DNA of 64,000 nucleotides from Cetorhinus maximus (lineage: Eukaryota). Below the pieces are notes generated by a model. The model was not told the DNA's origin, made no database searches, and saw nothing but the letters and a program-made list of their open reading frames with translations. Position numbers and translations under genes: made by a program. Of the stretch, positions 14,349-57,669 are shown piece by piece (the stretch's first letter is position 1; every line of letters begins with the position of its first letter). The stretch spans positions 123,132,001 to 123,196,000 of the forward strand of contig NC_135881.1 in assembly GCF_964194155.1 (NCBI RefSeq). The letters run 5' to 3'.

Positions 14349-14701
14349 TCAGATGAGTCCTGCTTCAGTATTGTATGCATCCTGTGACCCTTGGGGGAAT
14401 TCAGTTTTTTCCATTTTACTAGTAGTCCTTTTCACTTTTCTAACTTGCTCCAAAACCACCTGGGCATTACTTCTTTTTGCGTATATGAAATACACTGTGT
14501 GTCCAGCTATTACAAAAGTGACTGAGATAATAACCAACAGCCCGAAATATTGAGGGTTAGGAGTTGCCATAACCATAATGAAATGAAGCAGATCCATCAA
14601 ATAGTTCATTGAACTCTGCACACCATTTACAATTCCTCGCTGGAATTCTGGAATATTCTCCTGCAGAAGTTGTGTTACTGTCAGGTCAAAAGTCCATAGA
14701 C
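14349..14701 (-). CDS. SLC40A1: Ferroportin-like exon 8 coding part ([15 protein letters not shown]...EAGLI*)
   Basis: CCCTTTTAG acceptor; D504/H507 motif DLLHF; TGA stop at 14349-14351. Confidence 0.96.
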
Positions 14702-17700
14702 CTAAAAGGGAAACACAGTTTTGTAATCATGTTCTTGGTAAACTGATTGTTATGAATTGGCAGAACAGGTAGCTTGCATGATCTGATATTTTACTCTTGC
14801 TGAGAACAAATCAATTAAATATATAATCCCATGTTTAGTGTAAATCAGTTCAACTAAGAATGTGACTCTGATAATTTCACTTTTATTTTACCCACGCATT
14901 ATTAGAACACAACTGTGAAGCAAATTATAGCAACAGGAATCGTTGCCTTTGGCAGCCATGCAGTTCCTCTACAATTCCATGATAGCAAACATAATTGAAA
15001 TACATCATTCAACTATTTTCATTCACGCAATCTATCTTCCTAAAAATCTATGTATAGCTTCAAGTTATGGCTGATAGAAATGTAATATGCAAGGAGGTTA
15101 GGGGTCATTCCATTGAAAATGTGTCTCTCATGGAAATTGACAAAAATATTCGTGAGAGCTGAGGCTAGAGGGGATCCCAAGGCAACACCATCTATTTGGG
15201 TGTACATGGGGCGGAATTTTACTCATGTCGGGCGGGCTCGGCAACGATCGAGGCCGGAAGGCGATTTCACACTGGCGGGCTAATTAAGGCCCACCCAGCG
15301 TGAAAAGCAAGCGTTGCGCTCAGCACTGCCTGTATGGGCAGTGAGGGCAGCAGTGCAAGTGGGGCGAGTGTGAAATTCTTGCATGCGCGCTTCATAATCT
15401 CCCTGAGGCACAGAGCTGCCTCAAGGGAAATGAAGGGTTATAGAGAAAAAAACTAAAGAAAATAAAAATGTCATGAAACATGTCCCCTCATGTGACTCTG
15501 TCACATGAGCAGGGGCATGTTATTAACTAGGTTTTCAAATTTTTATTTTATTTTTATTTACTTTAGGAAACCTCATCCTGCCTGTGCATGAGGTTTTCTT
15601 AAAAAGTGCAAAGGCCGCTTGGCCTTTTCGCCTGCCCGCCTACTGTAAGGTTGGACGGGCAGCGAAAAATTTAAGTTAATTGCTCCTTTAATGGCCTTAA
15701 CAGGCCTTTTAATTGTCTGCCGACTCTGGCACGCGCCTGTCGACCAAACCATTGAGCGACTGCACGTTGACGTTGGCATACTCGGCCGATGTTAATGTGC
15801 ATCATTTCACGCTCGAGCGGGTTGGGCGCACACTCACCCGGTGAGATAAAAATTTTGCCCATTGTGTCACTGAAGCTGAACTCAACTGCGTGAGTTAAGT
15901 TCGCAAGTTCATTGAATATAGATTCAGAAAATGGCAATATATGTAGATTGCCATGATATAGTGACACGGCACAAATGTCTATGGAATCTGTTACAAATAG
16001 GGGAGAGTTAGGAGATAATTTCCCCTTCTTCCCACTTCTCTGTTGACCGCAACAAGATGTATATCTGAGGAGTGTGTTTTTTTGCCCCCCTTTCAGTGCT
16101 GTGACTTTGAAAAACAGACACAAAACAGGCTTTCTTGTAAATTTAAAAATCAAAAAGAAAAGATGAACATTTAGTAATCACAAAACCCGAAATGCAAAAT
16201 GCAACAAACACTCACTCCCCAAACTCACAGACACACACACATAAGAAATGTGATTTCTAGAAAACCAACATGCACTTAGATTACCAGAAGGGTAGGGCAG
16301 AAACAGGTCACTTCTTTACTGTCGTTAAGATGGTGGATGAAAATGTTGCAGTCCTCAAGGATTCTCTCCTGGTTTCTTGATGGCAAATAGAGGTTGGAAG
16401 TTTCTAGTTTTTAGTCTAAATCATAGTCCAGCCTCTGTAGTGAAGAAATGTAATAGCAGGTAAAACGTATTAACCCCTTTTAATGCCCGAGGTGACTTCT
16501 AAACAGGGTTTGTTTTTTGCTGGACCTGGATCTCTTCCCTTGGAGTCTTTTTCCTTTCTTCGATCAACTGACTTTCCACCATTCAAAAAAAATGTCAGTT
16601 ATAGAATGTTTCGTAAATGTCACAATCGGTTTCCCTGTCATGTGACCATGGCGTTAGCTTTCCATTGTCCACATATCAACATTCTGGACCAGAATAACAT
16701 CTGATGCAATTGTAATATCTCCTCGCCAGAGAAAAGAATGAAATTCCCTGACATTCCATTTTTGTTACATCACAGAACTTTAAAAAATAGTGTAAAACAC
16801 AAAATAGTAATCATTCAAACACATTCATTCCCATGCACTCCTCACGGTCATAGTCACTGAACTTTTCGCAACATGCTTGTAACATGTTGTTCATTTTAGA
16901 CAAACAGAAGATTCTTTTTGCTATACAAGAATCCATAAAGCAAACACTAAGGGCAGAATTTTGCTCTTGGCAGGTGGGCTTGGCAGGTGCGGTCAATCGG
17001 GAGTGGACCATGATTTCAATTAAGGCCCACCCAGCGTGAAACGCAAGTGGCAGTGCTCAGCACATGCCTGTGCAGGGTGGGGGAGGAGTGCCAAGCACAA
17101 GCTTTGCACATGCGTGCGTGCGAGCGCTTCATAATCCCCCTGAGGCACAGAACTGCCTCAGGGAGATAAAAGAGTTGTTAAAAAAGGAAAATGAAGAGAA
17201 TAAAAATGCAATAAAACATGTCCCCTCATGTGACTCTGTTATTAATTCAATTTTAAAACTTTTATTTTATCTTTATTTGCTTTTGGAAACCTCATCCCGC
17301 CCATGGATGAGATTTCCAAAAAATGCAAAGGCAGCTTGGCCTTTTCGCCTGCCCGCTAAACCGTTAGGTTGGATGGGTACCAAAAAATTTAAGTTAATTG
17401 ATTACTTAATGGCCTTAACAGGCCTTTTAATTGTGGGCAGGTGCGCTGCCAGCTCCGGTGTGTGCCCGCTGCCCGAACTATCGTGCGACTGCGCGTTGAT
17501 GTCGACAAACTCAGCCGACGTCAACGTGCGTCATTTCACACTCGAGTGGGTCGGGCGCATGCCCGCCCAGTGAGTGAAAATTTCTGCCCTAAATACTATC
17601 CAACAATTTATCAGAATTAACGTGAGATAAACATGAATTAACAGGCAAACTGTGGTTACTACCAAGTGGCAGATAAAGCCAAAACAGAACCCACAAATTC

Positions 17701-26700: not shown

Positions 26701-29700
26701 TCTAAAATACCTTTTAACCTATTTTCTCAGTCCATTTTAGCCAACTCTGTCTTTATGCACTTGGAAATCACCTTTATTTAAGTTTAAGGCCTTGGTTCAG
26801 GCTCAAATTTCTCACCCTCAAACAGAATGTGAAATTCTATCATGTTATGATCATTCTTGATCAGAGGATTCTTCACTATAAGGTTACTTAATAACCCTGT
26901 CTCATTACACATTGCCAAGTCTAAAATAGCTTGCTCCCTGGCTGGTTCCAGGTCATATTGTTCGAAGGAACTTTCCTAAATACACTCTATGCACTCATCT
27001 TCCATCCTACCTTTGGCAATTTGATTCCTCCAATCTATATGAAAATTAAAATTGCCCACAATTGTTGCAGCACCTTTCTTATTAGCCCCCATTATTTATT
27101 GTTTTACATGCTGTCCTACATTGTTTCTGCAGTATTAAGTTTCTTACTTAATCAGAAAAGCACAATATTTAATTATTTTCCTTTGTGGACAGGTTGAATG
27201 TGGTATCCTAACGCATATAATGTGCCACATGCCACATCCAAGTTTTTAATCATATACACTGCTGCATACTAGTATGTATATCATACCCAAGCACAGATTT
27301 ATGTGCATTATGGAAAAATAGATACTGCTGTCAATAACTGTGCAGGAAGAAGAGATATAGACACCAGTAGAACATTAAAGTAGCAAGGCGTCAAGTGTGG
27401 TCGGGGGCGGAGAAGGCAGGTGAGAAGGAGAGAACATTGGCAAAAGAATGGCAAAGCTTGAGAGCATGGTTTCATAACTGCAATTTCCCACATTCTGACT
27501 TTTGCCGGCTGGAGCTGGCGAGTATGGACCAGTCATTTATATGCGTAGGTCGAGGAAATAATAGACTAGTTCAAACTATCAGATCAGGTGGCTTTTGCAT
27601 ATCACACTGCAACCTGTTGGAAAGTGGCAGGAAAAGGAGGACAAAAACAGAACAGAAAATATTTTCTTTTTTTAAAAAAAAGCACTAATTGCTTAATAAA
27701 CAGATGGTGAATTCATTATAAACTCACCTATTCTTGCAGATATAACACCAGAGAAAAGTAAACTAATGGAGACATAGGAGTCTGGATAATTCCCAGCCGG
27801 GAGACTGTCATACAGCAAGGTGTTATTTGTCCAGTGAATAGAAGAACGGTCTGACAGCAAAGGCTGATTCATATTTGAGCTAGGCAGGTAGGAATGCAAT
27901 TGATTCATCTCTGTGTCTGGAACAGTCTGGTTCATTAGTGAAACATTAGTATGTGGAGACATTGGGTTGCTGCTCAAATCAAAGGGACTGCCAGGTGCAA
28001 AAACTGAAAACACACAAAGTAACAAGCAACCTAAGTGCAGACAACTGGATATGATTCCCGTAGATACCAGGCCATAATATTTCCGTAACATAGTGAACAA
28101 AACTGTGCCCATTAGTCCAGTGATGGTAGAAATGCCCATGAGGAGGCTAAGTAGTGAGCCACTAATGCCTTGTGTGAAAGCATAACCTGTGGTGATACAG
28201 TCAAATGCCAAAACTGTGGTGTACAGAAACGCTAAACTCATTCCAGCGAGGAAGACTGATTGCTGGTAGTATACATTCCAACCGGTTTTGCTGATGTACA
28301 GCATCCTCTGTATCCATTGTTGCACAGTATAAATCCCCAGAAAGTTTTGCTGAACTGGTAACCTGGCATTCTTGTCCAAATCTGTCGTGGAGTTTGGGGT
28401 TGTTTCTGATCTGCTGTTACATCCATGCATGGGGTATTGCTGCTGAGCATCTATTAACAACATAATATTAAACAAGCTAACATACAGTTATGACAAACTT
28501 TCCATTGCTTTCAAGCTATCTTTCTCTACAATATATATTAACAATTGGGACAGAAATATTCTTAATACAATTAAACAGCAATCTCATGAGATTTGTTTTG
28601 AACAATTGTCAGGACGATATAATTCTCATAATGTTATTGGAATTTATTGTAAAGTAGAGTAATAGTAGGGCCTGTGTCTATGGGTCCATGTCTGTGTGTG
28701 GGTGTGTGAGACTTAATTGAATTAAAGGCAGCTGGTCTGAAGGCTTTGATGTATTAGAAGATAAGCTAGGTTTGAAATGTAGAGTAGGTAAACATAAGGG
28801 TAAGGGAACATTTGCATTTTAAAATAAACCAGACCAGATTGATTTCAAAGGAGGGGTGAAATGTGTCACCTAGCCAGGAGAAGTAAGAAACAGTGTGTTT
28901 ATTTTTCTCAAAGATTACTGGTAAAATTGGTACTATGAGAGATTTTTATTATCAGAGAGGTGAAGTCCAAAGACATAGTAAAACAATGGGAATTGCATTC
29001 AATGGGGAAAATATGTATAAAGGAGCAAAGGTTGTGTGGAAGGGAAGGTATTCTAAGATCTAACAAGTGTGAAATGCCTTCAGCATCTAAGCTTCAAGCT
29101 ACTGTCTGCAAAGAACTGAAGTTAAGAAAACTCACTTTGAATTGGATTGTTTAGGGTATCATGTTTCTTCGCCTGGGTCTTTTAAAATCTATGGGCAGAA
29201 ATTTGCAGTGAGCGGGCGGGTGCGCGCCTGACCCACTCGAGCGTAAAATGACGCACGATGATGTTGGACAAGCGTTCCGACATCATCGCACACTCACGCG
29301 ATATTTTGGTTGATGGGTGCACGCGTGAGTCAGCTGCGCGCCTGCCGACAATTAACAGGCCATTAAAGTTATAATTGAATGAAATTTTTTGCTGCCTGTC
29401 CAACCTAATGGTTGGCGGGTAGGTGAAAAGGCCAAGTGGCCTTTGGATTTTTTAGGAAACCACATCTTCCGGGGGGGGGGGGGGTGAGGTTTCCAACAGC
29501 AAATAAAAATTAAATAAAAATGTTTAAATTTTATTTATAACACGTCCCTGCTCATGTGACAAAGTCACATGAGGGGACATGTTTTTAACATTGCTAAGTT
29601 TTTTATTTCTGATTTTTTAAAATCCAGCTTCCTGAGGCAGCTCTGTGCCTCAGGAAGCTTTCACTGTACGCACTCACAAACTTATGCGCTCACTCTCCTC

Positions 29701-32700: not shown

Positions 32701-35700
32701 AGCACATCACTCTTTGAATTACTTCTGAAGTGCAGTCACCTGTTGTTTTGTAGCAGCCAATTTGCACACAGCAAGGTCACATAAATAGCAAATGAGATAA
32801 GTGACCTTTTTACCTTTTCTGCTTGTAGTCGCTCTTGTTCTTTCAAAGTAGTTAAGCTGGTCTTCATACCAGCCTGGTCCAGCCTTAAATGCAAGTGCAG
32901 GGACCATTCTATAAACTCTTGACAGACAAATAAATTCAACCAGCAGTGAAACTAAGGTCCAGCCAAGAATGAAGACACAGCCAATTACATTCGATGCTGA
33001 ATACATGATCTGGCCCACAGTCATTGCAGCCAGAACATTGACAACTTGGTCTATTCTTCTCATAACAGCATTCACATCTGTAATTAAGATATTAAATTAG
33101 TGTCGGATAATAATATTAGCCTTATGTTTAGGTTACATCAGGTTGTCAAACTAAATGAACGGCTTACACTCTGTGCATGGTGATAGGAAATCCTCATAGG
33201 ATCTATTTCTTAGAGGTTCATAACAGGTTTTTCTGCAATCAAATTCTTATTTCATAATTCATGATCCTTCAGTACTATTAAAACATTTCAAGTTCTAATC
33301 AAAAATACCAAATAAAGCTTGGAGTTAATATCCAGCAACATAATGGTCTGGATTTTGCTCTCTGTGGCTTTCACCATTCATCATGTACAATTAACTTGTG
33401 ACAGACCTGTCAGTGAACAATTTCCACTAATCTGGCAACTGTTTCAGTAGGGGATCTATGAACCAGGCAAGCAACAGCAAGGCTTCATATCCAATCATAT
33501 TGAAGTACCTATCCTGAGCAAAATAGACTGCAATCCAGGAAGTAAAAGGAGGAAATATAAATCATATTTAAATTGTGTACAAAGAAAAAATACATAAAAA
33601 TTAGGAAATACAAATGGAATTAAGGGGAGAGAGAAAAGAGGGAAAAACATAAAAAGTAAAAAGGAAACCTGCAACATTACTTTTGGGGAAATGGGACTCC
33701 ACACTTGTAACATTAACATTTCAGGGCCAGAGAGGTTTTCAGCACTAATTATCAATTATCATGTCATAAAAACCCACTTACCCCTAAATGCACTAGTCCT
33801 AATGTTTTCAGCCATCTTTAATGTGGAACTAGTGGGTACATAATTTAAGTTTATACATTACAATATGAAGCCAATTGGTGAGGACAACAGCAGTGCGTCC
33901 TATGGAGGAGCAGGGCATAAATTTTCCTCTTTAGCTCTGAAGAAGAGCTAACATTAACTCTGTTTCTCTTTCCCAGATGCTGCCTGACCTGCTTAGTTTT
34001 ACCAGCATTTTCCATTTTTATTTCATAAATTTTCTGATTTTAACTGTGGATCTGCAGAAACCAGATATTGCTGTCAGATTCACCCTGTAATAATGGTGAG
34101 TGTTGATAGCTTCATTGTTATCATCACAACAATGTCAGGGCCAATATTTTAATAGCTAGTCCCAAGCAGTGTTTATCACACCAAGGAAAAATAAATTCAA
34201 GAGAAATAAATGATTTAGGCGAAAGTTTTTTTCGGAGGGTCAAGGACATGTATTTGCAAGTAGGTAGGGAGATGCTGATGGTGACTGATACAAAGAAGTG
34301 ATCAGATAAGCTTTTGTCTGTAATCAAGGCAATGGAAATTTTGAAGCCACATGAGGTGATCGCGGATTGATGGGGTGGATGCCTGCGTACATGGGTAGGA
34401 GAGTTTATATGGAGGTTGAGATGAGGAGAGGACGGGAGTGCACTGAAATCAGAGGACGGGGGAAAGTTGAATTGAAGGGGGGAGTTTGAAATCATTGAGA
34501 TGAGGAGTTGCTCAACACACAGGCTAAAGAGGAGTAAGGATAATTCTAAGAATCCCAGGAAAGGATTTCAGGGCAAGGCACAGGAGAGAACAAGGACTAT
34601 GATGAAGAAGAAGCAAAAATGAATAGAACATGAAGATTTGCTTGCCCAAGGACAAGGTGCCATAGGAGTTGGTGGGCGAGGGGGAGAACAGACCAAGGTG
34701 TGTTTTGCAGGGCAAGTGTGAAAGTATAACCAGTCCAGGAGGACTTAGTAAGAAGTCTAATACTAGCCATGTGCCAAGTTTTTGTCAAAGCCAGAATATC
34801 AATGTAATTATCCACAATATGGATGTCAAGGTCCTGTTCCTGATCTAACAGGCATCCTGGAGGCAAATGCAGAGAGCGGTTTATTAGTCTGTGGCACAGT
34901 TAAAGAGGAAAGCAGCAAATGGGAGGATTGGGAAGTGAAGGGGATTATCCCATAGCACTTGAGCTGGGCAGGAAGATCAGTAAGACAGAAAGATGGAACA
35001 ATTGGAGTTACTGTGCCCAAGATGATAGCATCAGCTGCCTTGATATGCTGATTAACAAATGCTGAGAGATGCACAGGGCTGCCAGCTTATTCAAGGGGCT
35101 GCAACCCATTAACATTAAGATGTAGTGTTTAATGTCATTCAATATCTTTCATTCACAAAGATTACAGAATCATGAGAACATGATTTTCCATGAACAAAAT
35201 CCAGAGGCATTATGTCAATGTTGAAAATTTAGTTAAGATTAATTTGTAACAAAATACTCTTTATTTCCCATCACTTTTATAACACATAGCCTATTTCAGG
35301 AACAACCATCTTGTTAAAAATTAATTCATTAATAGCAGCTCCTTCATCCAAAATGGTCCTTATTATGTACATAACATTAACATAATTAGTCAGTTGGACC
35401 ATTTACCTATGAATGTGGGAAAGGGTCATAATTATCACCAACTATGTATTTTGCATAACCAAATTTCAGATGAAGAAAATTAGGATTTATCTCAGGAGAC
35501 AAACCACAATTATCCACCCACAATAGTATCAACTGCAATTTGATAAATGGGTGCAGCAAATTTTTCCCCTTAGGAGATTTTAAAGAAAGCTTTAGTCAGA
35601 ACTGAAACTTAAAGGTAGAAAATTATAGATTTTACAATCACTGCGTATGTATGGCCTAAGTATAGTGAATGCACAATGTTCCATAAACCAAAATATTTTT

Positions 35701-38700
35701 GTTCTGCAAATCTAGTTAGATGAGCATGATATAAATGCATAGACATAAACAGTGAACTTGAAGCATGGACCTAAACTGGACCAAGTGGAGTCTCTTCAGA
35801 ATAGCTTGCAAGTATCCAAATTTCTGTCCTTTCAAACAATTAGCTCATTCTGCAGAGGAAACATCATTTCGATATCCTACACAAAAAAGTTTGTCTCTTC
35901 CATACATCTACCAAAGAAAATTGATGAAACAAAGCTACATTTTTTCATTAGTGCTACTGTAGCTCAAGCCACAGTAACATCATTTTAATTCTAAATTTAA
36001 CGTTTGACCGAGGGCAATTTAATGTAGAAAGGATGGAGGCCTCATTGTGTAAGTTGCACCATACTTTTTCCTGCAGTTTAATGGGTAAGCCTTCAAATAG
36101 TCTTAAACTTCCATACCATTTCCACGCTCACCTTAGTCCACCCGCTATTAGAACCCTTATATGAACAGGAATAGGCTATTCAGCCCCTTGAACCTGTTTC
36201 ATCAATCAATTAAATCATGCTAAACTAGCTAAACCTCAATTTAGTCACTTTTGACCCATAAAATTGATTGTTTCAGTCATGAAAGCTTCAGTTGACCACA
36301 TCCACAGCCTTTTAGGGAGATAGTTCCAGATTGATATTACTCTTTCGCTGAAGAGCTGCTTCCAGATTTCAGCATGTGGGGCAATCTCTTGGAGGTGGGA
36401 TTTGACAAGGGATGAAAAGTGTGAACTCCTTGAAAAGAGCCCCAATGTTCTGTGTCCCTTCTCTTCACTCTCATGGTAATTTTTCCTGATTTGATGTCTC
36501 AGAATTATGTTTTCAGTCCTTGTCTTTGAATCCCTCTATGGCCTTGACCCTTCCTATCTCTAAACTCCTACAGTTCAATTATTCATCATGTGCACCTCCA
36601 CCAATGCCCCCACACCATCCCTTTCCCCACCCCCACCCAAACCCCTTCACACTATCACTGGAAGCTGTACACTTCCATTTTCAGGATGACCTATCCTAAA
36701 CCTTTCCAACTCCCTCTCCTCAGGCTGTAAATAGAAGCAATAGATTACAACGTTACTCCCAAGTTAGTTGATAGCTACTTGAACTTGCTTTTCACCATTT
36801 ACTAACACCTTTGTTTGAAGAACAAAATTTGCTCTCATGTTAATCATTTGTCAATCCAAATGAATTCAAGGGTCACATGAAGAGTTTTTTTCTACATCGT
36901 AATATACAAACAAGGTTTACACACATGGTTCTTTGTAGATGTCTTACCTGCAAGTCCATCCCTGTTGCATCCTGTGATTACAATAATCCAGTCCCTCTGA
37001 ATGGCAATTGTCAAAGCTGTGCTTGCAAGGTTTGCTGCATCTGCTAGACTGATGACCACCATGTAACAGACCACCTTGTGTGAGTTACATTAAACAAACG
37101 GACAATAGATAACAAAAAAGCTACTCATCTAGTTACACATGCAATAACTAAAACATCTTTATGGGATTTAATTCTTAGCTTTTACTTTAAAAAAAATTGT
37201 AACTTATCTAATCTTTTGAGTTCTTCAACATAATTACCAATTTAAAATAGACATTGTGAAATTTGAACATTCATACTGTTATGAAGCTATTAATCTATAT
37301 AATATCTTGGAAAATATTTTTCTTTTAAAATTGAGGTTCGGTCTGTGGGTACGTCTTAATGTGATTAAAGCCAGCTAGTCTGGGTGCTTTGATGTGTACT
37401 AGTTTGAGATGTAAACAGAGAGATAGCGTTCATTTGCATTTTTTTGAATAGAGCATTCAAGAAGCGGGGTGAAAACTGACGCCTTTCTAACAGCTATCAA
37501 GCAATATGTTTATATTACTAATAAAATTGGTATTATGAAAGGGGTTTCATTGTTAAAAGGTAAAGTTCAAAGAGGTTGTTGATACAATGAGAATTTACAT
37601 TCAATGGGGCTGGTAGGTATAACTTCAGTAGTTTTTCAGGTGTGCAGGCAAAGGCAATGTAAGATCCAAAGGCAGCTGCAAGCCTCCCACTGGCTCCACA
37701 GTGGAAAGAACCTCATTTTGAATTCGTAAGGTGAAAATGCTTTGCCTGGTTAAGTCTATGGGTTGTTGCCTTAATGGAGATTAGTTTGGGAATTTGTTAA
37801 AAGTTATGATAGTAGTGATTTGTAGCCATGTGTACATATATTTTAACCTGTGTAAATTAATAAAATGTTTCAATTAGTTAATGTAAAGCCTCGAGAACTA
37901 GTGGTCTGATTCATGAGTTTAGAGTCGCATCTCAAACGTAACACTTAAAATTATAGGTTATGACAGTTGTTTAAAGTTTCCCTCTGGGATTTTTAAATAA
38001 CTCCACTTTACCATCTGCATCGATCATAACAATATGTAGTTTGCAAATTTATTACTGAGCTTCTCTATCAACATCAAACCAATGTGCTCGACCGTAATCG
38101 GTGTTCAGTTTTTTACTGTTTGGTTGCTAAATCCAGTCATAAAATCTGACGACAAAATGTATTTTCAATCATCTGCTCAGCCAGTGAAAAGTCCTTCTAG
38201 TTAAATGGATCTGTTCCAAAATATTACTGCTGTTAGCTGCCAATTAATTAATATAAATAACCCTCAGCTGGTCTGCCAACTCTCACTTACACACTTCTAC
38301 GCTATTTTAAAAAACGATTATGGATAGAATGCTATCATAACAGACCTACATGCAGCGGGAAGGTCAGGAGCGGGTCGGGAGTCAATTTGTTCTGCCATGG
38401 CTTTAACCCAGCTACGACATTAGCACTGTGGTTCCGTCATTCCTGACCAATCAGAGAGGCTGGGTGGGATGATGGCCTATACTCTGTATGATGGCTCTCC
38501 AAAGAGACTCAAATAGGGGTCAGAATGACTGCAGGAAGCGTTGCTTGTAAAGGCTACTAGAGGCAAGGACATTGAAGGAAGATGTGGGAAAGTTTCCCCC
38601 ATTCTCTGACTCTTTCTTGGAGGTTATGCTAGAGATGGTGAGAGCCAGAAGGACGTGTTCTTTCCTCTGGATGGAAGGAAGAATCAAGCCATCCAAACGC

Positions 38701-44700: not shown

Positions 44701-47700
44701 TGTTGCTCTTGTTGCTACTGTAGCAGTTGGCATGGCTCCTGGTGCTGCTGTATGTGTAGCTCTTCCTGTTGCTCCTGATCAGAGGCCCATGCTATAGCTG
44801 TATAAATTGCTCCCATTTTGCAGTGAACGTTAACAGCAAGGATGTTGAGATGTAATTGAGTACACTCCAGGGTAATTGAAACTACTTCCAATAAGTTGGA
44901 AGTGATCTTTGAAGCATCGAATGCAGGTTCTCAGGGCAAATCCTGTAAGCACCAGCACTGTGCCTGGGCACAGATTTTGTGATTTCACTCTTTCAGCATG
45001 TCAATATAATCCAACAATGAGACCCTGCTGTGCACTCGTCTTGTTGACCCTGGCGAGATACAGAGAGTTTGGGAAACCAGTAACTGGCTGTTAAAACCAG
45101 AGTGCTGAGTTAAATCTTCAGTTAATTGTTGCTTTGAATATTTTGATTACTTTCCAGGCAACTTCGCAGGGTTCCCCACTTGCCTTTGGTTAAACCCACA
45201 AGTGGACAGGATCATATCAGGCTCCTGACCCAAAGTTACCTTTTAGGGCTTTAACTGCCAGCCCCTGAACCTGCCTCCCGTCGGAGTTAAAATTCTGCCT
45301 AAATCTGTGGACACAATCAGATTTATTTTCTTAAAGCCTCTTTTCATTTCTCTGTGCTTAGTTGGAAACCAATCCTATTAAAAGCTGCTTTTAAATGGGT
45401 TAGCTGCAGCAGCGAGTTGCCAAGTGGTGTACAGTTTTATTGCCTATATGACCCTTTTTCTTCCAACAATTTCCAGAATTTCTATTATTGGTCAATGAGA
45501 AATGTTTTCCTTTGCCGAGGGTGAAGGGTGAGGAGGGGAATGAGCGTTGGGGTCATGCCAATCTATTGCTATTATTAACATTGGTGCAGATTTCAAATTA
45601 AACTGCTTTACCAGTGTGACCGAGCATATAGTGGGTTCTGCGTTGTTTTGTCCATGTTGGTGATTTAGCACAACAAGGTCTGTCGATCAAGATCCACATT
45701 CACAAAACAACCAAATATTATTGTGGTTTTCATTCTTTGACAGTATTATGCAAAAGTAAAACCTCAGGCAACATACTGAGTGAAACTTCCTCCACTTCAC
45801 AACCTAAATCCTGTTATGGGTCTTAGGTAATTGTACTTATTTATAACAATGGTATAGAAATTCAGAACAGTTAGCAAATATTTATAATTTCAGTTCTGGC
45901 AAAATTTACACTCTTTAGGTCCTTGTGGTATCTCAATCAATGATTATCATTCCTTGCACTTCAGTGAGGTATGTTTTAACTGCAATTAAAATGGAGAATT
46001 TGCAACAATCCTAATTCTAAAAAAATATCAGCATCAATAACAAGCTCAAATGCAGCAGATCAAGTCGGTCATCAAAATTATGACTTAACATTATTGGTAA
46101 TTACATTCTTCAATTCTAATCTGGTTACATGGTATTAAACGGAAACAATGGTCCTCAGGACCCACTATTGCATTCTGCTACCGAAACAATGGTGGGTTGG
46201 GATTTCCAGAATGCCCATGTAAGAAGTCCCTGACGCTGTTCGATTTTTGGGGTCTGACAATTTACATTTTGTTGACAGGTGTCTGCCTCAGTTTTGGCAT
46301 TGTGAAGGTGATCCTTTGGTGGGGGATCCACAAAATGTGGTGGTGGTCCATTTACTAGGAGCAAGGCTTCAAGGGGGTGGGTTTATGCAACAACTGTCTG
46401 TTCCCAGGAAATCCGTTCAAGCTCAAGTTCCAATTGAGTCAAGACCTGGCATCACCCCAATTTTGGTGTCACCCCAATTTTTGCTGTTGAAGTTATCTGC
46501 CCACACTGAATCTATTAGTAAGCTCACTGATTTTCACAAGTAATATACTTTACATAGATGAGAATTTTTTTAAAATCCTCAACAGATACTCACAGTTAAC
46601 CATCCATCCCAAGTTTGTTCAATCCATTTCTTGTATGAAAATATCAAAATCAGTATGATACTGCAGAGAATGATGGAACCATTCTGAATAAACAGGGATC
46701 CATGAGCAACTAAAATATAATTCATAAGGGATGGGTTAAAATTAAACTATTTGTGCAAAAAGGTCTTATCTGAAATAAATTAACACAGATTTCTGATTTC
46801 TTGTACTCCATCATGACCAGCACCTCTATATCCCCATCAAAAATTAGCATGAACCTATTGTTGAAAACGTTTTGCTACTTCGGTTTGGTTTCTGATAGAA
46901 GTAGAAATTTCAAAAATCAAAACATTCAGATAATTGTTCAACAATTAGGCACTTCCATTGTAAAACAATTTGGAAATTCCAATATTTGACCCAAATTTAG
47001 TTGAATTGAAAAGTACAGTTAGACCAAGAATGGATTGGAACATCCTCAACTTTTCTGAAACTGAGGTTGACAAAAAGCTAATTTTCTTGACACTCATTTC
47101 CAGTGGGCAAGAGCTCAGACACGAGTCCAGTTCCTTGAGCAGCAACAGGCCTTTGGCCATTCACTCAACTGACCATTTGTTTCAGCAAGTCTAAACATTA
47201 TGGCATTGAGATTCTGGAGGGACTCTTGTTATTTACCGTAACATGATGATACAAAATCTACGGGAAAACAGGGGAGAAAGTTGGAATTCATCAAGAGAAC
47301 ATGTGCAGGTGTAAGCACCAGGAACTTGGGTAATCCTGCTCCTATCACTACTTTGTGCAAACCTGATAGCCTCGTCACATCTTAAACATTGTGCAGAGCA
47401 GATTCTGGGATACAGTAAAGCCATTTCATTCAATTTAGTGATCTTACTGACTTCAAACTTTACTGAGAACTGAAGAGAGTGCATTTCGCTGTAACCTGCC
47501 ACACAGGAATGCAATACTGGATGAGTACAGACATTGTGCCAACTGCAACAAGAAATGCAGACTCAATCAAGGAGATGGGAGTTTTATTCAAGGTCTTGAA
47601 TCCTTATAGACAGATAAGCAAATGACATTCTCAAAAGAACTGTTGGTTTTATCAGCAATTAAATACCACATTTTAAGCACACTTCCCTTAAGAATTCCTC

Positions 47701-50700
47701 TCCAGGTATTATGTTAAAACAACAGAGCCCAGATCTTCTGCTCTCCAGATCGTCGGAGACCACATGTATGACCCAGGATGCATGTTGAGACCCTGAGGAA
47801 GTCCCGACGTGTGGACCTTCATGAGAATTGCCTGGAAAGTTTGAACTTTCCCTGATCCCTGGGACCCTCCGAGAACGTTTCCAACTCTGATTTGGTGTCA
47901 GAGACTTTGGACAGTTCCGACTTACTTACCTGAACAGTTACCCAGGAAATGTTAGAAAAATCCTAGTCTGAGTCCTGGATAACTATACAAGTGATCCCCC
48001 AATCACACTCAAACTGACCCCTGGACTCACCCCTTGAATATCTCCAATCCACCAATCCAACCTGATCCGACTACCCCCCTGCCCCCCACCAACTGTCCCC
48101 CGACCCCAACCAACCTGAATACTGCTCTCAACCCCAACCCCGACTATCCCTCTAACCTCCCATCCATCGCCGACTATCCCGACCTGACCCGGCTATCTGC
48201 TGACCCTCTGACTACACCCTTATCCCGTGACTACCTCCCCTGACCCCCTGGCTATCCTCCTGACCCAAACCAACATGAATATCCTCCTCATCCTCCGACT
48301 ATCTCCCTGACCCACCGACTATCCCCTGACCCTCCGCTACCCCTTGACCCCAACCCCATCCCCCCACTGACGACTACTCCCTCCCTGACCCAAGATTCCT
48401 ACCCCACCCCCGTCCACATGGCTAACCCCACGACCTGACCTGACCAGCCCCCGACCCACCTACCACTCTACCCACCTGCTACCCTACCCACTTACCTCAC
48501 CCAACTACCTATTCATCCACTCACCCATTCACTAACATTTACACTGGACAGTTAAACTTACCATACGGCAGCTAATACTGCAAAAGGGGGCGGGTCTTCT
48601 CCTCCCCCACACTACAGCACTGTGATGGAGTTCTCCGAGGGACACAGTGCTCTGTATTTCTGGAGATGTTGGGCCCATAAGGCCCGGCAAGAAATACAGA
48701 GCAGCGTCAAAGCACAGAAAAGTGCGTGCGGAGCGGCATTCTGACGAAGATTGCCACCCCGTGGAAGATCTGGGCCTATATGTCCATTTGTCATGTCAGG
48801 TACTCCCTCTGAGGAAGTTACATGGTATGTTGTTAGCATTTTTAAAATGTACTCAAAAACAGGCTTTTTCACATTTAATATAAATGTCGTAGCAACAGCT
48901 TATGATTTTGGCAGCTACATCAAAACAGTTTTTCTCAATATAATTTTGGATTCGATATTATGCATGTGTTTGTGTAACTACAGATACCGCTGTATTACCT
49001 TTAATTCTTGGATTCCGGTCTACCCAATCTCCAACAATTGCACCAAAAATTACCACAGATCCTGCTACTATCAAACCAACCACAGCAGTGAAAAACAGGT
49101 TATGTCCACACAGCTCAATCAAAAAGACAAATACGGCAAAATGCCACATGCGGTCGCCCTGAAAGATAAAACAAGAAGTGAGATTCTGAATAATTACAGC
49201 TGTGAAAGTGTGAAAGTGCTATCAATGAACAAAAATAGGTGTACACATACTATTAAAGGAGTAGTGTGCTTTCATTTATCTTATTGGTAATGAATTTTTA
49301 ATTTTGTGATTCTAAAATGAGTCATATATAAAGTAGAAAAATGTTAAATGAGTTGCAGGCCTTGAATCCTGCAATCTTGCCACACTTAACTTTTCAACTA
49401 TAGGTGGGATGAGTAGACAAATTACTTGTATCGCGATTTAAATTCCTTTTACTAAATAATACTGTTAGAAAAAGGATGGGTGGGCATTTGAAATGCCCTG
49501 ATTGGTTTGTCTGCCAATTTCCTTCTTGTTATAAATTTGATTTAAACTTGCTCCTTAGAGCAGGTAGCAAAGGCATCCGTGTGAAGCTGGCAGGCATCTT
49601 TAATTACGCAAATTAGAGTCCATATGACATCAAACAGCTCAAGAGCCAAATGGACCACTGGCTTCAGAAGGGTGGTTTGCCTCCACGCATATAGATCAAT
49701 TTATATAAGGAAATATCGCACCAGGGGTAAAGATTAATGATACCTGTACTATTTGTACAAGTGACTGTTGTATCTTTTCATTGAGGGCTTTAAAAATAAT
49801 ATAAAAAGCACTAGCATCTGGAGCAACCAAGGTACATCATACAGTGGTAAAAGATATACATTGTTTCAAATTTTCTACAATCACAAAAAGTACCATTTCG
49901 GATAAGTACTCATAAGTTTGGGACAAGTTTATAACGTTAGAAATTAGAAACACCTCAACACCAAAACTATACCATAAGCTGGATTTTCAATCAGGGGTTG
50001 GGAAGCCAATGTCCAGATCATTTCCAGGTCCCAACCCTGTGTTGCGCAAGTGTCAGTGATGCAACGCAGTCTTGTAATGCAAAGGCCCTAATTGGATGAG
50101 ATTTCCAATTAGGAGCAACTGGCACTGCCTGGAGACGGGAACTTGTTCTGGAGCTCGAATCTCAAAGGCAGATGGCAGTCATGACTGGGCTTAAAGTTGT
50201 CTGGAGGAATGGAGCGGGCAGGAGAGCAGAGGGCCAGTAGCCTCACAGTCCACACAAGTTCCCTAACACTCACTCACAGGGCTCGATTTACAGGGCATCA
50301 TGGTCCCCATTCCTGAGCTAAAAAGTCGGTGGGGAGCCCGGCCACGATTCTGATGGCTGCCCCGCAGCAATTTAACATTGAGACCAGTATTAACTGCTTT
50401 AAGGCGAGACTTCTGCTCCTATCTCAGAAGGAAGTCCTGCATTAGGGAGCTGCCAGCCAATTGGATGATTGGCAGGTCAGTAGTAGAAAGGAGTTCCAGG
50501 TGGGAGCGGTGGCTACAGGTGGTCCTGATAAAGAGGAGCGCAGACTCCAAGGTAAGTCCGAGGTATTGCCTGGGCCCGACTGGCGAGCCCCAGTGACAGG
50601 GTTAACGGGGGTGGTGGCTTGGTTTGAGAGGCAGGGGGAGGGAGTAAGGGGGAAATATGGTCTTGCAGGTGGAGTGCCTCCGATGGGCCCAGGGATCCAC

Positions 50701-53700: not shown

Positions 53701-54440
53701 TCCGCTCTGCTCAATTTTGCGCCACCACATGAACACCACAGTTTAAACAGGCTTTTATCCAGATTTATCAGCAGCAGCAGCCACAGTGAATACTGGCTCC
53801 CCGCTGTGCTCCTGACAGCTGTACATTAACCTCTCCCAGGCAGCTCGCTCTTCCCAATCTCACCCTTGAAAATCAGATTCTCTCGCTCTGCTTCAACGAG
53901 CTTTGCAGCGAGTTAATTGGACGAGTGCAGGTTTGCCCCTCCCTCTCCCTGAAGACTGCAGCCTGTCACGGAGGCGTCGGAAGACACGCCACCCGAGAAT
54001 TTCAAAGCACGCCTGCGCCCGACCTCACAAGCGATTGAAAATCCAGCCCCATATGTCTATTGTTGTGCATTCACATGCCAGACATCAACTCAGATAAAGT
54101 AATGTGAGAGTTATTCTGCTTACCCACATTGACAGCGCACCACTGACATATATCAGACACCTTGGGGTCTTAAGAAAATTCAACACCAGACCTAGTGGGG
54201 GTGGGGAGGGGGGAAAGAACCAAGTCTTAAACCACAAGTAAAGCAATTAACTACTGGAGACTTAAAATTCCCCAAAGTCCACCAAACTAATGATCAACAT
54301 GTGGCTGGTCTTGTTAACAAATCTTAAATTGCTTGTAAGAATACTTGTGAAAACTACTCACCAAAAAGCCTTATTTGCAGATATTTTTTCCCCCTCCATT
54401 TATCTTCTTGACCAACACGGGTCCTTTTGCAGTCTGGCAT
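14349..54440 (-). CDS. SLC40A1: Ferroportin-family iron exporter (SLC40A1-like, probably a divergent paralog), 8 coding exons, 629 aa
   Basis: Spliced translation gives ferroportin motifs [71 protein letters not shown]. All introns are GT-AG. Exon sizes 79/68/160/116/127/264/723/353 sum to 1890 nt; exons 2-5 match the human SLC40A1 sizes I recall. Confidence 0.93.
15209..15860 (+). mobile_element. Harbinger-type MITE copy 2
   Basis: GGGCGGAATTTT...AAAATTTTGCCC TIRs; family homology. Confidence 0.85.
16951..17589 (+). mobile_element. Harbinger-type MITE copy 3
   Basis: GGGCAGAA TIRs, TAA TSD on both sides. Confidence 0.88.
19426..20401 (+). mobile_element. Solo-LTR-like sequence
   Basis: Ends CAAGTTTCC..CTGGGATTT...CATAACA like the LTRs ending at 30154 and 38031; AATAAA near 20225; 5' boundary uncertain. 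Confidence 0.6.
21057..21580 (+). mobile_element. Harbinger-type MITE copy 4 (3'-truncated)
   Basis: Family homology and 5' TIR. Confidence 0.8.
22030..22760. mobile_element. PLE-like remnant with short inverted ends and a hammerhead-like motif (22061-22100, minus strand)
   Basis: AACTTGAA..TGCTGAAAAG..CATGTTGCCAAAGC at 22035-22072 is the reverse complement of about 22718-22757. Confidence 0.55.
22338..22637 (+). mobile_element. Harbinger-type MITE copy 5 (truncated, nested)
   Basis: GGGCAGGATTTT terminus; family homology. Confidence 0.78.
23790..27120 (-). mobile_element. CR1 LINE ORF2 remnant interrupted by a MITE
   Basis: [31 protein letters not shown] motifs. Confidence 0.9.
24820..25518 (-). 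mobile_element. Harbinger-type MITE copy 6 nested in CR1
   Basis: Reverse family homology, AAATTCTGCCC end, TCT TSD. Confidence 0.85.
27728..28450 (-). CDS. SLC40A1: Ferroportin-like exon 7 (DAQQQ...AFDCITTGY...GVISARI)
   Basis: 723 nt open frame; TAG acceptor; AG|GTGAGT donor; D325/C326 region. Confidence 0.95.
28607..30154 (+). mobile_element. Gypsy 5' LTR (with nested MITE)
   Basis: TGT...CATAACA termini, homology to solo LTR 37277-38031, PBS immediately downstream. Confidence 0.8.
29193..29859 (-). mobile_element. Harbinger-type MITE copy 7 nested in LTR
   Basis: GGGCAGAAATTT...AAAATCCTGCCC; flanks TAT/TAC. Confidence 0.85.
30159..30176 (+). promoter_or_regulatory. Primer-binding site complementary to tRNA-Pro
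   Basis: TGGGGGCTCATCCGGGAT, 17/18 match to the canonical tRNA-Pro PBS TGGGGGCTCGTCCGGGAT, 4 nt after the LTR end. Confidence 0.88.
30290..32310 (+). pseudogene. Gypsy gag-protease remnant, frameshifted and truncated before RT/IN
   Basis: Coiled-coil E/K/R tract, [11 protein letters not shown] capsid-like motif, CCHC knuckle [14 protein letters not shown], protease IRDTGASQ and ILGN. Confidence 0.9.
32814..33077 (-). CDS. SLC40A1: Ferroportin-like exon 6 ([11 protein letters not shown]...PALAFKAG...TTSRK)
   Basis: 264 nt; TACAG acceptor; AAG|GTAAAA donor; RRIDQ motif. Confidence 0.94.
33930..34026 (+). mobile_element. Short PLE pseudo-LTR-derived fragment
   Basis: CTGAAGAAGAG..TTAACTCTGTTTCT..CAGATGCTGCCTGACCTGCT matches 11425-11520. 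Confidence 0.6.
34300..34830 (-). mobile_element. Degraded L2-like LINE endonuclease fragment
   Basis: [13 protein letters not shown]-like motif and LSDHF. Confidence 0.55.
36948..37074 (-). CDS. SLC40A1: Ferroportin-like exon 5 ([42 protein letters not shown])
   Basis: 127 nt; AG acceptor; CAG|GTAAGA donor; N144 and D157 motifs. Confidence 0.96.
37277..38031 (+). mobile_element. Solo LTR (Gypsy family)
   Basis: TGTTATGA...TCATAACA perfect terminal inverted ends, ATAC/ATAT 4-bp flanks, AATAAA near 37859. Confidence 0.85.
38530..38807 (+). pseudogene. Harbinger Myb/SANT-like DNA-binding protein exon remnant
   Basis: [19 protein letters not shown]...[33 protein letters not shown] followed by a GTGAGT donor. 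Confidence 0.75.
39195..39987 (-). mobile_element. Non-autonomous TIR element with G-rich core (relative of 47726-48777)
   Basis: Reverse similarity to 47880-48560; ends in AGTTACGGGCC. Confidence 0.5.
40121..40250 (+). mobile_element. Short PLE pseudo-LTR fragment with degenerate hammerhead
   Basis: CTGGAGAAGAGTCATACGAACTGGAAACGTTAACTG...AGACCTGCTGA. Confidence 0.7.
41730..42160 (-). mobile_element. RTE-type LINE remnant
   Basis: YLGS and [17 protein letters not shown] motifs. Confidence 0.6.
42308..42956 (+). mobile_element. Harbinger-type MITE copy 8
   Basis: TIRs, TCT TSD, family homology. Confidence 0.85.
43940..45299 (-). mobile_element. PIF/Harbinger element with degraded DDE transposase (about 43950-44820)
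   Basis: [45 protein letters not shown]-like (PG..HD) motifs; AAAATTCTGCC terminus shared with the MITEs. Confidence 0.85.
46594..46709 (-). CDS. SLC40A1: Ferroportin-like exon 4 ([39 protein letters not shown])
   Basis: 116 nt, absent from the ORF track; TTTTAG acceptor; GTGAGT donor; aligns to human VAQTSLVVQNVSVILCG...GWVLT. Confidence 0.95.
47726..48776 (+). mobile_element. Non-autonomous TIR element with C-rich degenerate tandem core
   Basis: GCCCAGATCTTC ... GAAGATCTGGGC TIR; CCGACTATCCC-like repeats at 47990-48540. Confidence 0.7.
48999..49158 (-). CDS. SLC40A1: Ferroportin-like exon 3 ([16 protein letters not shown]...[11 protein letters not shown])
   Basis: 160 nt; TTTCAG acceptor; AAG|GTAATA donor; D39/H43 motif. 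Confidence 0.96.
50950..51560 (-). mobile_element. LINE 3' fragment
   Basis: [28 protein letters not shown]. Confidence 0.8.
54124..54191 (-). CDS. SLC40A1: Ferroportin-like exon 2 ([23 protein letters not shown])
   Basis: 68 nt; pyrimidine tract plus CTAG acceptor; TGG|GTAAGC donor; aligns to human ...KFLLYLGHSLSTW. Confidence 0.9.
54362..54440 (-). CDS. SLC40A1: Ferroportin-like exon 1 coding part ([26 protein letters not shown]+G)
   Basis: ATG at 54440 with A at -3 and an in-frame TAA upstream; donor TTG|GTGAGT; phase 1 matches exon 2; 170-nt intron. No protein similarity supports it, so it is less certain than the other exons. Confidence 0.7.
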
Positions 54441-54706
54441 TCTGCAATGTAGTGCAGATTAGATCAGTCTGTAGCTTCTTGCACTGTGATAACCAAGCGG
54501 GACAGTTAGATGATCGGGACTTCTGTGAGGATGTAGGACTTTTGAATATACATTTGTGCAAATTATAAAACACAGTCCTCTGAAGCAATACGTTTAATAT
54601 CGGTTTGTTTCTTTGTAAAATGAAAATATTCTTACTCTTGTAGCCGAAGAATATTCCACACACTTATGCTTGTATTTTTCTTGGTTTTGCGCGTTGCGTT
54701 TCCTGA

Positions 54707-54780
54707 TGTGCACGTTTGTTAATTCACAGCAATTGACATAAATAACATAGATGCGACAGACCTGTAGTCAAGTGACGTGA
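54707..54780. promoter_or_regulatory. Candidate proximal promoter motifs: two ACGTG (HRE-core) sites, one within a CRE-like TGACGTGA
   Basis: CACGT at 54711-54715 and TGACGTGA at 54773-54780, in a locally CpG-retaining non-repeat stretch about 270-340 bp upstream of the ATG. Short motifs only. Confidence 0.25.
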
Positions 54781-57669
54781 TGTTGCTAAGACTTGCTTTA
54801 AAAGCAGAAAATCCCTATTGTTGTCGATGACACGAGACTAACACACTGGAAATCATATGACAGAACCAGTACAATCAGCCTCGAGAGCCCAGGGGGACAG
54901 TGAAGGGGGACAGTGAAGGGAATGCAGCTGAACATAGCAGTCACCCAGCATTTGACAAACTTAACAGTATTTGCATTCACCGTTATTTGTTATTACAAAA
55001 GGACAGACCAGTCCAGTACGAAAAACAATAAATGAAGAATGTTATAGAACATGCAGCAGTCAATCAAAAACGTGTTCAACCTTATTCTGAGTTGTAATTA
55101 ACCTTGGCTGAGTTGTAGCATTCTGACCTCTGAGGCAGAAGGTTGATATTTAAGCACCACTTGCGAACACCTTTTGATCACATCACTTTCCAGGGTGTGT
55201 TTATATCGTGATGTACATATTGCACTTGTGTGGGACAGGCTGGACAGACCAGTAAATATTTTCCTGTCTTTCATTACCTGTTATTTAAGTTGTTGTGCGA
55301 GATTAGGGAAATAAAATCCCCAACTCACACAAGCCTGCACACCATCTCATTCATAAATTAAGAGACAAACTCTTAAAAAATCAAGAGGTTTGGTATAAAA
55401 ATCACAGTTGCTATTTTGCCAAGCATAAACCAATATAGATTGATAGTTGGTTTATAAACGTCATTAGTGGCTTACTTAATCTTTAACTATTCAGAATGCC
55501 TTACAAAAACTATGGACTGGATTTAATTCAGCCTGTCATGGTGGGAAAAATGGCAGCTGGAACCACTTAATTGTGGGAGAGGCCCTGTTTCAGTCTTCTG
55601 GTGGAGGCAAAACCTCTCCTTCATTAAGTCAGACCATGGAAGAGACTGACATGAAATTCCCAGCCGCTGCCATCTGAATGTTAATTATGCTCATTAATGA
55701 GCCAACTCACATCCATTATTCCTGAGTCCGCAGCAATTTAATGGTGACTCAGGGGTTAAATGGAGGCCGCATAGCTTTCCGCTCCCTCAGAAGGTCACAA
55801 ACAGTGACCTCCTGGGGGCTCCCTCATAGTTAGGCACTCTGTGCCTAATCGAGGGACCCAGCATTGGGCAGGGGGGGGCCGATGAAAGCCATTCTTTCAT
55901 GAAAGCCCTTGCCTCCGATCATCCCCACTCCCACCTTCCCACAATCTCCAACTGCCTTCACTCACCTTTGGTCTGGGGTATCATGATGATCCTGGGTGTC
56001 TGGTGGGTGCATTGCCATCAGAAGCCACTGCTGTCGCGGGCCTCTGATTGGGAAGCAGTTTTCAACGTGTGGGACTCCCAACACCAGGGATCTCAATCAC
56101 AGAGAAGGCCCAATGGTGACCCCTTAAGGGCACTTGATTCCGTCAGACCTCCCCCATGGAACTGATCGTGGTTGCATCTGAAAACAAAAATTCTTTCAAA
56201 AAATCCTCACCATTTGTGCATTCTGACTCAACGTATTTGCTGGCTTAGTTTCTCTGTTTTATGGAGTTGGTAAATGGGGTGGATATATTGATAAATTGAG
56301 GCTGTTCTGCCTACAGTTTTACATCTGTTCTAGACAAAATATGCTTGCAAACAGTCAATTACAAATTACAACACCTCTAGAGGTATTGTATTTTGATTGA
56401 AGTTTTGTAGCCAAAAACTTCCAAAAATAAGGTAAGATGTGCTTTTCCTTGTTCACTAAATCTCTTTTCACGGTACTGCTATAGGTTCATTAATGTACTT
56501 TGGGTAGACTGTAAATAAAAGAGCAGATCTCATCTGACCTGACATTACACTCAGAACATAAATTATCTGAAACCCCAACTCCAGTGGGCTGGGCACTCAA
56601 ATTTGGCATATTTCCTTTATAATGCACTGTCAGCCCTCGAACACTCTGTAACTCACTCTTATCCCTCCAATAATCTGCACATGCCTTTCTTTGTTACCTC
56701 TAGACATGACTATTCCAATGCATTCCTGACTAGCCTCCCACATTCTACCCTCCATAAACTTGAGGTCATTCGAAACTCTATCACCTGTGTACTCTCAATT
56801 ACTCACACCAAGCCCCATTCTCCCATCACCCCTGTGCTTGCTGACTTATACTACTGTCAGTTAAGCAGTGCCTCAATTTTAAATTGGGAGGCAAGCCCAA
56901 ATATTGTATAACTCACTGCCAGCCCTCTATTACTCTCAATGTTGCAACTTACTGCTAGCACTCTATTACTCTATAACTCGCTCCCGGCCCTCTATGTGTA
57001 TGTGTGTAATAAATTCCCAAAATGAATTGAAATTCGATTCTTTCTATAGTGACTTCTTCTCCAGATTATTAGCACTTAATTCTGTGCACTCTTGGTACAA
57101 TTGCATTTCCAGAGTATGTGCTGCATTTTACAGATATACATAAAGAGCTTAAATAATGTCCCAGCAATGCTTATAACCCCTTACCTTAACCTGGTCCTGA
57201 ATGGAGGTGTCCAGGCTCTTCACTGCTGAGGAAGGGTATTGCGACCTGGAAAATGGGGACACAAGGTCCCAAATCTTTTAAGGGCTATAAAGTTTAGTGA
57301 AAGCAATTTACAGTGTTGCGTTCCTCTGCCACAAACACACTAGGGCAAAGTGCACTGAATATCATCACTTATCAATGTAATTGGCCAACACGTGCTGCAC
57401 AGAGATTGTTGCTGAGAGCAGCAGCACATGTTGCCTGATTATGGGGTCTTTGCAGGACATAGCAATCTATGAAAGGGGTATTTTTAGAATGCCTGTTCAA
57501 AACCCTGAGATTTCAGAGCCCTTCGTGAGATTGTAAGTGTCCCTTAATTTTACCCAGAAACCTATAGATAGCTCCAGCAATGCCCATTACAATCCATGTT
57601 TAATGCTGGAAAATAGTTAATAGCATAGGCAAGATAGAGAAATAAAACTAAATGAGTATGGGGTAACTT

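Follow-up and report, generated by a model that had tools for sequence, protein, structure and literature searches.

Introduction

Descriptions of cellular iron export name a single exporter, ferroportin (FPN1, SLC40A1; PF06963; PDB 8dl6-8, 6w4s, 6wbv, 8bzy, 6vyh). This report concerns a further gene of the same family, found in a 64,000-nucleotide stretch of the genome of the shark Cetorhinus maximus (assembly GCF_964194155.1, contig NC_135881.1, here C3, positions 123,132,001 to 123,196,000) that is referred to below as the window. The window gene shares with FPN1 its eight coding exons, its 12-helix major facilitator superfamily (MFS) fold, the ligands of metal sites S1 and S2, the gate residues and the main contacts for hepcidin. 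It is unlike FPN1 in its sequence (about 49% identity), its separate clade, the failure to find an iron-responsive element (IRE) in the window or the 30 kb beyond it, and the loss of Y64, H32 and most lysines of the cytoplasmic loop. The N-terminus is longer, the external loop is longer and carries a motif of its own, and the neighbours are TOMM7 and hyccin. It is a real, conserved SLC40 paralog and not an FPN1 ortholog.

In human FPN1, changes at C326, Y501, D504, V68 and R466 weaken or abolish hepcidin binding, according to passages of PMC6789780 and PMC10030120. C326 and H507 double as ligands of metal site S2 (a section of PMC9883014). Downstream of binding, Y64N confers hepcidin resistance via impaired ubiquitination, and K229, K253 and K269 are involved in degradation (passages of PMC6789780), while K240E is listed as hepcidin-resistant in one part of PMC13702422. 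How binding of hepcidin on the outside is coupled to ubiquitination on the inside is a live question.

A sea bass study (PMC5665920) states a single ferroportin gene for many fish, and for fish with two hepcidin types. Contrary to this statement, records from perch, striped bass and tuna are placed within the clade of the window gene or cluster with it. Proteins of this clade carry the database names "ferroportin", "ferroportin-like" and "SLC40 member 1(-like)". The ferroportin-like records are orthologs of the window gene, with the same clade, motif, Y64 state and lysine pattern, and are automatic annotations often given the same name as FPN1. Full-text literature searches, to which subscription journals are mostly external, returned no title or abstract among the matches listed that presented a second vertebrate ferroportin as a distinct gene. 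One supplement to a paper on an ohnolog database (PMC13450315) had no SLC40A1 entry, although the database itself may list the pair. The gene appears to have been overlooked in perch, striped bass, salmon, carp, Xenopus and turtles, and an unrecognised paralog under a shared name would put studies of iron and infection in fish in a different light and could distort expression data. Because the sequences are already in databases, the gain lies in recognition and a testable mechanism and not in a new fold or chemistry.

Results and discussion

Three SLC40 loci in the shark genome

A genome-wide search for the family returned 15 exon matches in three groups, located at C11:45.63-45.66 Mb, at C11:61.96-62.02 Mb and in the window. 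The protein encoded by the first group is 71.5% identical to orangutan FPN1 and groups with FPN1 in trees. This copy is flanked by an ORMDL gene (45.11 Mb) and by a tail-to-tail pair of fibrillar collagens (46.45 and 46.63 Mb). Because these neighbours match those of human SLC40A1, presumably arranged as COL3A1/COL5A2 - WDR75 - ASNSD1 - ORMDL1, the C11:45.6 Mb copy is taken to be FPN1. ASNSD1 was not located, its family PF00733 giving no match genome-wide, and WDR75 was not searched for. The window gene lies outside this block, with TOMM7 on one side and a hyccin gene (C3:123.22-123.25 Mb) on the other. Its protein is 48.8% identical to orangutan FPN1, 48.6% to the FPN1 of the same genome and 60-62% to frog and perch members of its own clade.

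A first-pass annotation, made from the sequence of the window, had proposed a second iron exporter that is a paralog rather than an ortholog of FPN1. The paralogy is borne out by the two further SLC40 loci, the different neighbourhood and the lack of grouping with FPN1. The window gene is indeed a further copy, but "second" understates a genome with three SLC40 loci.

The remaining copy, at C11:61962644-62022400 (P0240), carries C326G, N144D, Y501S, H507R, Q182L and N185K. No IRE was found in the 52 kb upstream of it by Rfam search and pattern scan. C326G is present in all 16 proteins of the third clade, to which this copy belongs. It is a better candidate than the window gene for a hepcidin-blind or non-iron transporter.

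Phylogeny and distribution

A tree of 61 proteins was built by a quick search with eight invertebrate outgroups, using organism names from source labels. Support by the Shimodaira-Hasegawa-like approximate likelihood ratio test (SH-aLRT) was 100 for the window clade, 99 for the FPN1 clade and 99 for the third clade together with lamprey. The window clade comprises 25 rows, from 6 sharks, 9 ray-finned fish, 5 amphibians, 2 turtles, platypus, Antechinus and mouse lemur, and the third clade holds the third shark copy with coelacanth, lungfish, chimaera and lamprey sequences. The end branch of the window gene is short (0.012), which fits continued selection, and the stem branch of its clade is 0.74. 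Orthology to FPN1, entertained as a candidate, was ruled out by the three loci, the IRE-bearing FPN1 on C11 and the separate clade.

From these groupings, the split between the window gene and FPN1 clearly predates the divergence of sharks and bony vertebrates. In a tree of 24 proteins the window clade was supported at 100/100 and FPN1 was placed as its sister at 89.5/90; the sister relation received 73 in the 61-protein tree. The window gene sits on a segment of C3 that is paralogous to C11: Hox13, fibrillar collagen, HECW and hyccin are each represented on both contigs, whereas the genome search found no ORMDL locus on C3. We infer the labels HoxA (C3) and HoxD (C11) for the Hox13 genes, whose naming by PDB match is weak: the C3 gene matches HOXA13 at 8.5e-36 and HOXB13 at 5.4e-35, and among the chains listed for the C11 gene none was HOXD13. 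An origin of the window gene in the genome duplications of early vertebrates (2R) is likely but not proven, because an approximately unbiased (AU) test on the 24-protein set (5000 replicates) left both alternative branching orders standing (p 0.12 and 0.18).

Retention in non-mammalian vertebrates, as the first-pass annotation had it, was seen in sharks, ray-finned fish, amphibians and turtles, but the clade is not confined to them. Three mammal records, P0387, P0389 and P0409 (mouse lemur, Antechinus and platypus), also fall in it. All three look incomplete or frameshifted: the exon-6 region is missing from one and exon 7 from another, and the remaining one goes out of frame in the external loop. 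Either mammals may be losing the gene or the gene models may be faulty. Birds, squamates, rays and chimaera contributed no member among the best 120 matches listed, a scope that does not demonstrate absence from these groups.

Two further sets of records stand apart. Axolotl P0390 is an extra ferroportin within the FPN1 clade. It carries Ser in place of C326, Phe in place of Y64 and Arg in place of H507, which possibly marks an independent loss of hepcidin control. Frog records P0091 and P0122 (1159-1199 aa) may be fused tandem copies.

Transport core

Residues are given in human numbering, using orangutan P0203 as a ruler checked against PDB 8dl6. Every metal-site and gate residue that the first-pass annotation named as retained was found. 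The metal-site residues D39, H43, D325, C326, D504 and H507 correspond to D51, H55, D355, C356, D549 and H552 of the window protein, and the gate residues R88, D157, N174, R178, D181 and R489 to R100, D169, N186, R190, D193 and R534. The divergence from FPN1 that it reported in the N-terminus, central linker, external loop and C-tail was likewise seen in the alignment; the central loop is 87 aa long as compared to 69 aa.

Conservation was assessed in 382 fetched proteins of 400-700 aa, drawn from top-120 hit lists with isoforms plus the three mammal records. Sorting by best match to nine references gave 147 window-clade, 209 FPN1, 16 third-clade and 10 lamprey-like proteins. H43 is present in all 147 window-clade proteins, D325 and C326 in 146 (1 gap), and D504 and H507 in 143; the few exceptions are gaps. 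The same S1 position in the FPN1 class is His in 132 of 209 proteins and Asn in 60, with Asn in 3/3 teleost FPN1s checked.

An AlphaFold model of the ortholog P0005, which is 84% identical to the window protein, has a mean predicted local distance difference test (pLDDT) score of 76 and superposes on human ferroportin with a root-mean-square deviation of 1.9 A (E 2.2e-31). All eight top PDB matches to this model are mammalian ferroportin structures of the MFS fold. On the retained sites and this modelled fold, we infer that the window protein exports Fe2+.

The clade also has features of its own. At >90% fixation, 41 positions separate it from the FPN1 clade, including N141D, Q93H and M319T, and Q380H is present in 146/147 proteins; these four clade-wide changes could shift metal selectivity. 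A 15-residue motif in the external loop occurs in its strict form in 142/147 clade proteins, and its IHW core in 0/225 FPN1 and third-clade proteins. The motif region is unstructured in the P0005 model (pLDDT <50).

Hepcidin docking and degradation features

The first-pass annotation placed the gene outside hepcidin control. This claim divides into two parts with different outcomes, since the docking residues are kept clade-wide and the features associated with degradation are changed. The window protein retains all nine docking residues examined (C326, F324, N144, V68, R466, Y501, D504, H507 and F508). Further counts for the 147 window-clade proteins are 146 for N144 and 144 for Y501, the rest being gaps. 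A ligand exists as well, since the genome has two near-identical hepcidin genes 35 kb apart (C34:12748944 and C34:12714339). The predicted mature shark hepcidins have 28-29 residues, with a loop longer than in human hepcidin, and differ from each other at position 3 (His or Asn) and in the loop.

In contrast, Y64 is found in none of the 147 window-clade proteins, where the position is Phe in 140 and Val in 6/6 sharks, as compared to 191/209 FPN1 proteins with Tyr (16 gaps). The 30 residues from position 229 contain a median of 1 lysine in the window clade (n=145) and 6 in FPN1 (n=202). Lysine density over the cytoplasmic loop is 0.044 in the window clade and 0.114 in FPN1, and the central loop holds 3 lysines in 87 residues in the window protein versus 12 in 76 in the FPN1 of the same genome. 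The human hepcidin-resistant variants Y64N/H and K240E therefore mark the same position and the same lysine region that are changed across the window clade. The residues at 64 in the clade are Val or Phe, however, and not the Asn or His of the resistant variants, and their effect is a prediction. Shark members have Val64 and Thr212, whereas their bony-vertebrate orthologs mostly have Phe64 and Asn212.

Judged from sequence, the hepcidin pocket seems to be preserved and the arm that leads to degradation seems weak. A paralog that keeps the pocket but drops Y64 and the lysines separates binding from the ubiquitination step, and the clade supplies natural variants for the study of their coupling.

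IRE search and 5' region

FPN1 at C11:45.6 Mb served as a positive control for the IRE search and carries an IRE (RF02253, 36.9 bits at a cut-off of 30) about 180 nt before its ATG. For the window gene, Rfam at gathering score found no IRE in the window or in three further stretches (L030, L031 and L063), and none was found in the window plus the 30 kb beyond, up to the last matched hyccin exon. Relaxing the threshold to E up to 10 over 53800-57000 yielded only two chance IRE matches. A pattern scan for C-N5-CAGWGH-N5 upstream of the ATG gave 23 candidates, none with 5/5 pairs; the CAGTG loops nearest the start (54854 and 54492) have 2/5 pairs each. The earlier placement of the gene outside IRE control agrees with these searches. 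Mammals have an alternative IRE-less ferroportin transcript, FPN1B. It likewise escapes repression by iron regulatory proteins (IRPs), but it encodes the same FPN1 protein, whereas here the gene and the protein are separate.

Upstream ATGs occur at 54553, 54739 and 54748 (minus strand) and open short frames of 15, 6 and 9 aa. The first lies within the probable 5' untranslated region (54441..54737, minus strand) and the others just beyond it. Such ATGs could substitute for an IRE by damping translation.

Proposed mechanism

We propose, and give an even chance to, an intact Fe2+ exporter paralog that is made without IRP repression and that hepcidin plugs but only weakly degrades. Fe2+ would be exported by alternating access through S1 (D39/H43) and S2 (D325/C326/D504/H507). 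Having escaped IRE/IRP repression, translation would be independent of cell iron. Hepcidin would still dock because its main contacts are kept, but docking would be poorly coupled to ubiquitination, since in the human protein that step is blocked by Y64N and few lysine targets are left here. FPN1, itself under tight regulation, would then be accompanied by an export route that is stable and whose block is reversible. For the window protein, each functional step, namely transport, hepcidin binding and degradation, is a prediction.

Several observations weigh against this proposal. K236 is kept in 145/147 clade proteins and the window loop retains 3 lysines, although correspondences of single lysines are unsure because the loop aligns poorly. 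Phe at position 64 (140/147) is a conservative change whose effect on degradation is predicted only. Retention of C326 and H507 need not reflect hepcidin binding, because both serve site S2. The IRE search covered this genome only, from a predicted transcript start, and species sampling in the 382-protein set is uneven. The window copy itself has two rare substitutions, S47F (F59 at 49131-49129; F in 2/147 clade proteins) and G323A (A353 at 28208-28206; 1/147), which could weaken this copy or be assembly errors; S47F is listed among human ferroportin-disease variants in a part of PMC13702422. Of the five Ca2+ ligands four are retained, and the fifth, N212, is Thr in 6/6 shark proteins. Finally, the AU test is compatible with more than one order of the three clades.

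A wider picture can be offered tentatively. Three ferroportin genes, present since before the split of sharks and bony fish, may mark successive control steps: a pocketless third copy, the IRE-less but pluggable window copy, and a fully controlled FPN1. Many fish, amphibians and turtles might then have an iron exit that persists through inflammation and that mammals are losing.

Alternative explanations

It is rather unlikely, but deserves weight, that the gene encodes a normal hepcidin-regulated iron exporter that differs from FPN1 chiefly in tissue and in the missing IRE. The docking residues retained throughout the clade, the aromatic ring that Phe64 preserves in bony vertebrates and the nearly invariant K236 all suit such an exporter, as does human Y333F, which matches the state of the window protein and is reported as hepcidin-sensitive in a passage of PMC6789780. 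It accounts poorly for Val64 in every shark, for the lack of Tyr64 in any clade member and for a loop lysine density well below that of FPN1.

A shift to another metal (Zn, Co or Mn) or to another job, with iron export minor, is unlikely. Such a shift is favoured by the 41 separating positions together with Q380H, by the conserved external motif without an FPN1 counterpart, by the long stem branch and by the damaged-looking mammal records. However, S1, S2 and the gate residues are all kept, and H43 is more conserved in the window clade than in FPN1.

We consider it improbable that the protein is fully hepcidin-blind, whether because the long external loop or the loss of Y64 closes the pocket or because the protein acts at an inner-membrane site. 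In FPN1, Y64 is among the residues lining the pocket that receives the N-terminus of hepcidin (a section of PMC10030120). The external loop is longer and conserved, and His32 is lost. The mouse H32R change mislocalises FPN1. Against a closed pocket, the window protein keeps V68, R466, Y501 and D504, changes at which weaken or abolish binding in the part of PMC10030120 used here, and a lost pocket has another signature, the C326G seen in the third clade. An ordinary FPN1 ortholog, recent duplicate or pseudogene is very improbable: the two rare substitutions of the window copy could be read that way, but an FPN1 with an IRE and the expected neighbours is present on C11, the window gene is closer to frog and perch clade members than to that FPN1, its frame is open and an exon junction is spliced in a relative.

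Gene structure and transcript support

The uninterrupted 629-aa SLC40 frame with canonical exons described by the first-pass annotation was reproduced by computed splicing. Eight minus-strand exons join into 1890 nt encoding 629 aa and a stop, with no internal stops and GT-AG boundaries in 7/7 introns. In a Pfam profile search, five exons scored above the PF06963 cut-off (best E 3.9e-41).

Coding exon 1 (54362..54440, 79 nt) begins with the ATG at 54440 and encodes the same N-terminus as in shark records P0005 and P0360. The first transmembrane helix begins in exon 2 (54124..54191, 68 nt), which has Gly44 where FPN1 has His32. Exon 3 (48999..49158, 160 nt) encodes site S1 (D51/H55), Val76 in place of Tyr64 and Phe59 in place of Ser47. 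Q111 and N112, the counterparts of human Ca2+ ligands Q99 and N100, are in exon 4 (46594..46709, 116 nt). N156 (N144), D169 (D157) and the clade-typical Asp153 (human N141) are in exon 5 (36948..37074, 127 nt). Exon 6 (32814..33077, 264 nt) encodes N186, R190 and D193 and the beginning of the lysine-poor cytoplasmic loop. The remaining central loop, the D355-C356 pair of site S2 and the hepcidin pocket, and the long external loop are encoded by exon 7 (27728..28450, 723 nt). Within it, the clade-specific external motif (27825..27869, minus strand) spans residues 466-480 and ends in an N-glycosylation sequon at N480. Exon 8 (14349..14701, 353 nt) encodes R511, R534, Y546, D549, H552, F553, the C-tail and the TGA stop.

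A contig of run X1 joins 28106-28450 directly to 32814-33077, that is, exactly at the predicted edges of exons 7 and 6, and covers exon 6 in full. Run X1 comes from another organism, a relative, and its RNA nature is only guessed. Contigs of runs X1 and X2, which share one sample from another organism, also lie over 54544-54737 upstream of the ATG, in the probable 5' untranslated region without an IRE and with one short upstream frame. The end of the gene had been placed at 54800; this position lies upstream of the ATG and beyond the 54737 reached by the upstream contigs. In the 4 runs aligned no contig covers exons 1-2, and run X9 has 0 records on the 5' region.

Database record P0001 (577 aa, labelled Cetorhinus maximus) is identical over exon 7 but begins only at Met53, so that exons 1-2, and with them most of the first helix, are missing. 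The 629-aa start is favoured because shark records P0005 and P0360 share the long N-terminus, and its correctness is supported by this comparison. White-shark record P0360 itself has a 17-residue gap that removes most of the conserved external motif, possibly a gene-model error.

Neighbouring sequence

TOMM7 exon 1 lies at window positions 8859-8757 (minus strand), 5.5 kb downstream of the ferroportin stop, and is the sole Tom7 match in the genome. An exon resembling the IL-6 family was seen at C3:123090745-123090891 (plus strand), about 55 kb from the window gene; its Pfam match (E 0.0032) is under the cut-off. We take the human order at 7p15.3 to be IL6-TOMM7-HYCC1. IL-6 induces hepcidin in mammals, and the closeness of the exon to the window gene may be due to chance.

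Intron 6 contains, at 30446-32307 (plus strand), broken frames that by eye resemble gag and protease of a long terminal repeat (LTR) retroelement, with many related copies among the aligned contigs. At 10122-11045 (plus strand) an open frame of 308 residues ends in a GIY-YIG-like endonuclease motif, which we take to be typical of Penelope-like elements, and inverted pieces lie near 10068-10277 and 10755-11044.

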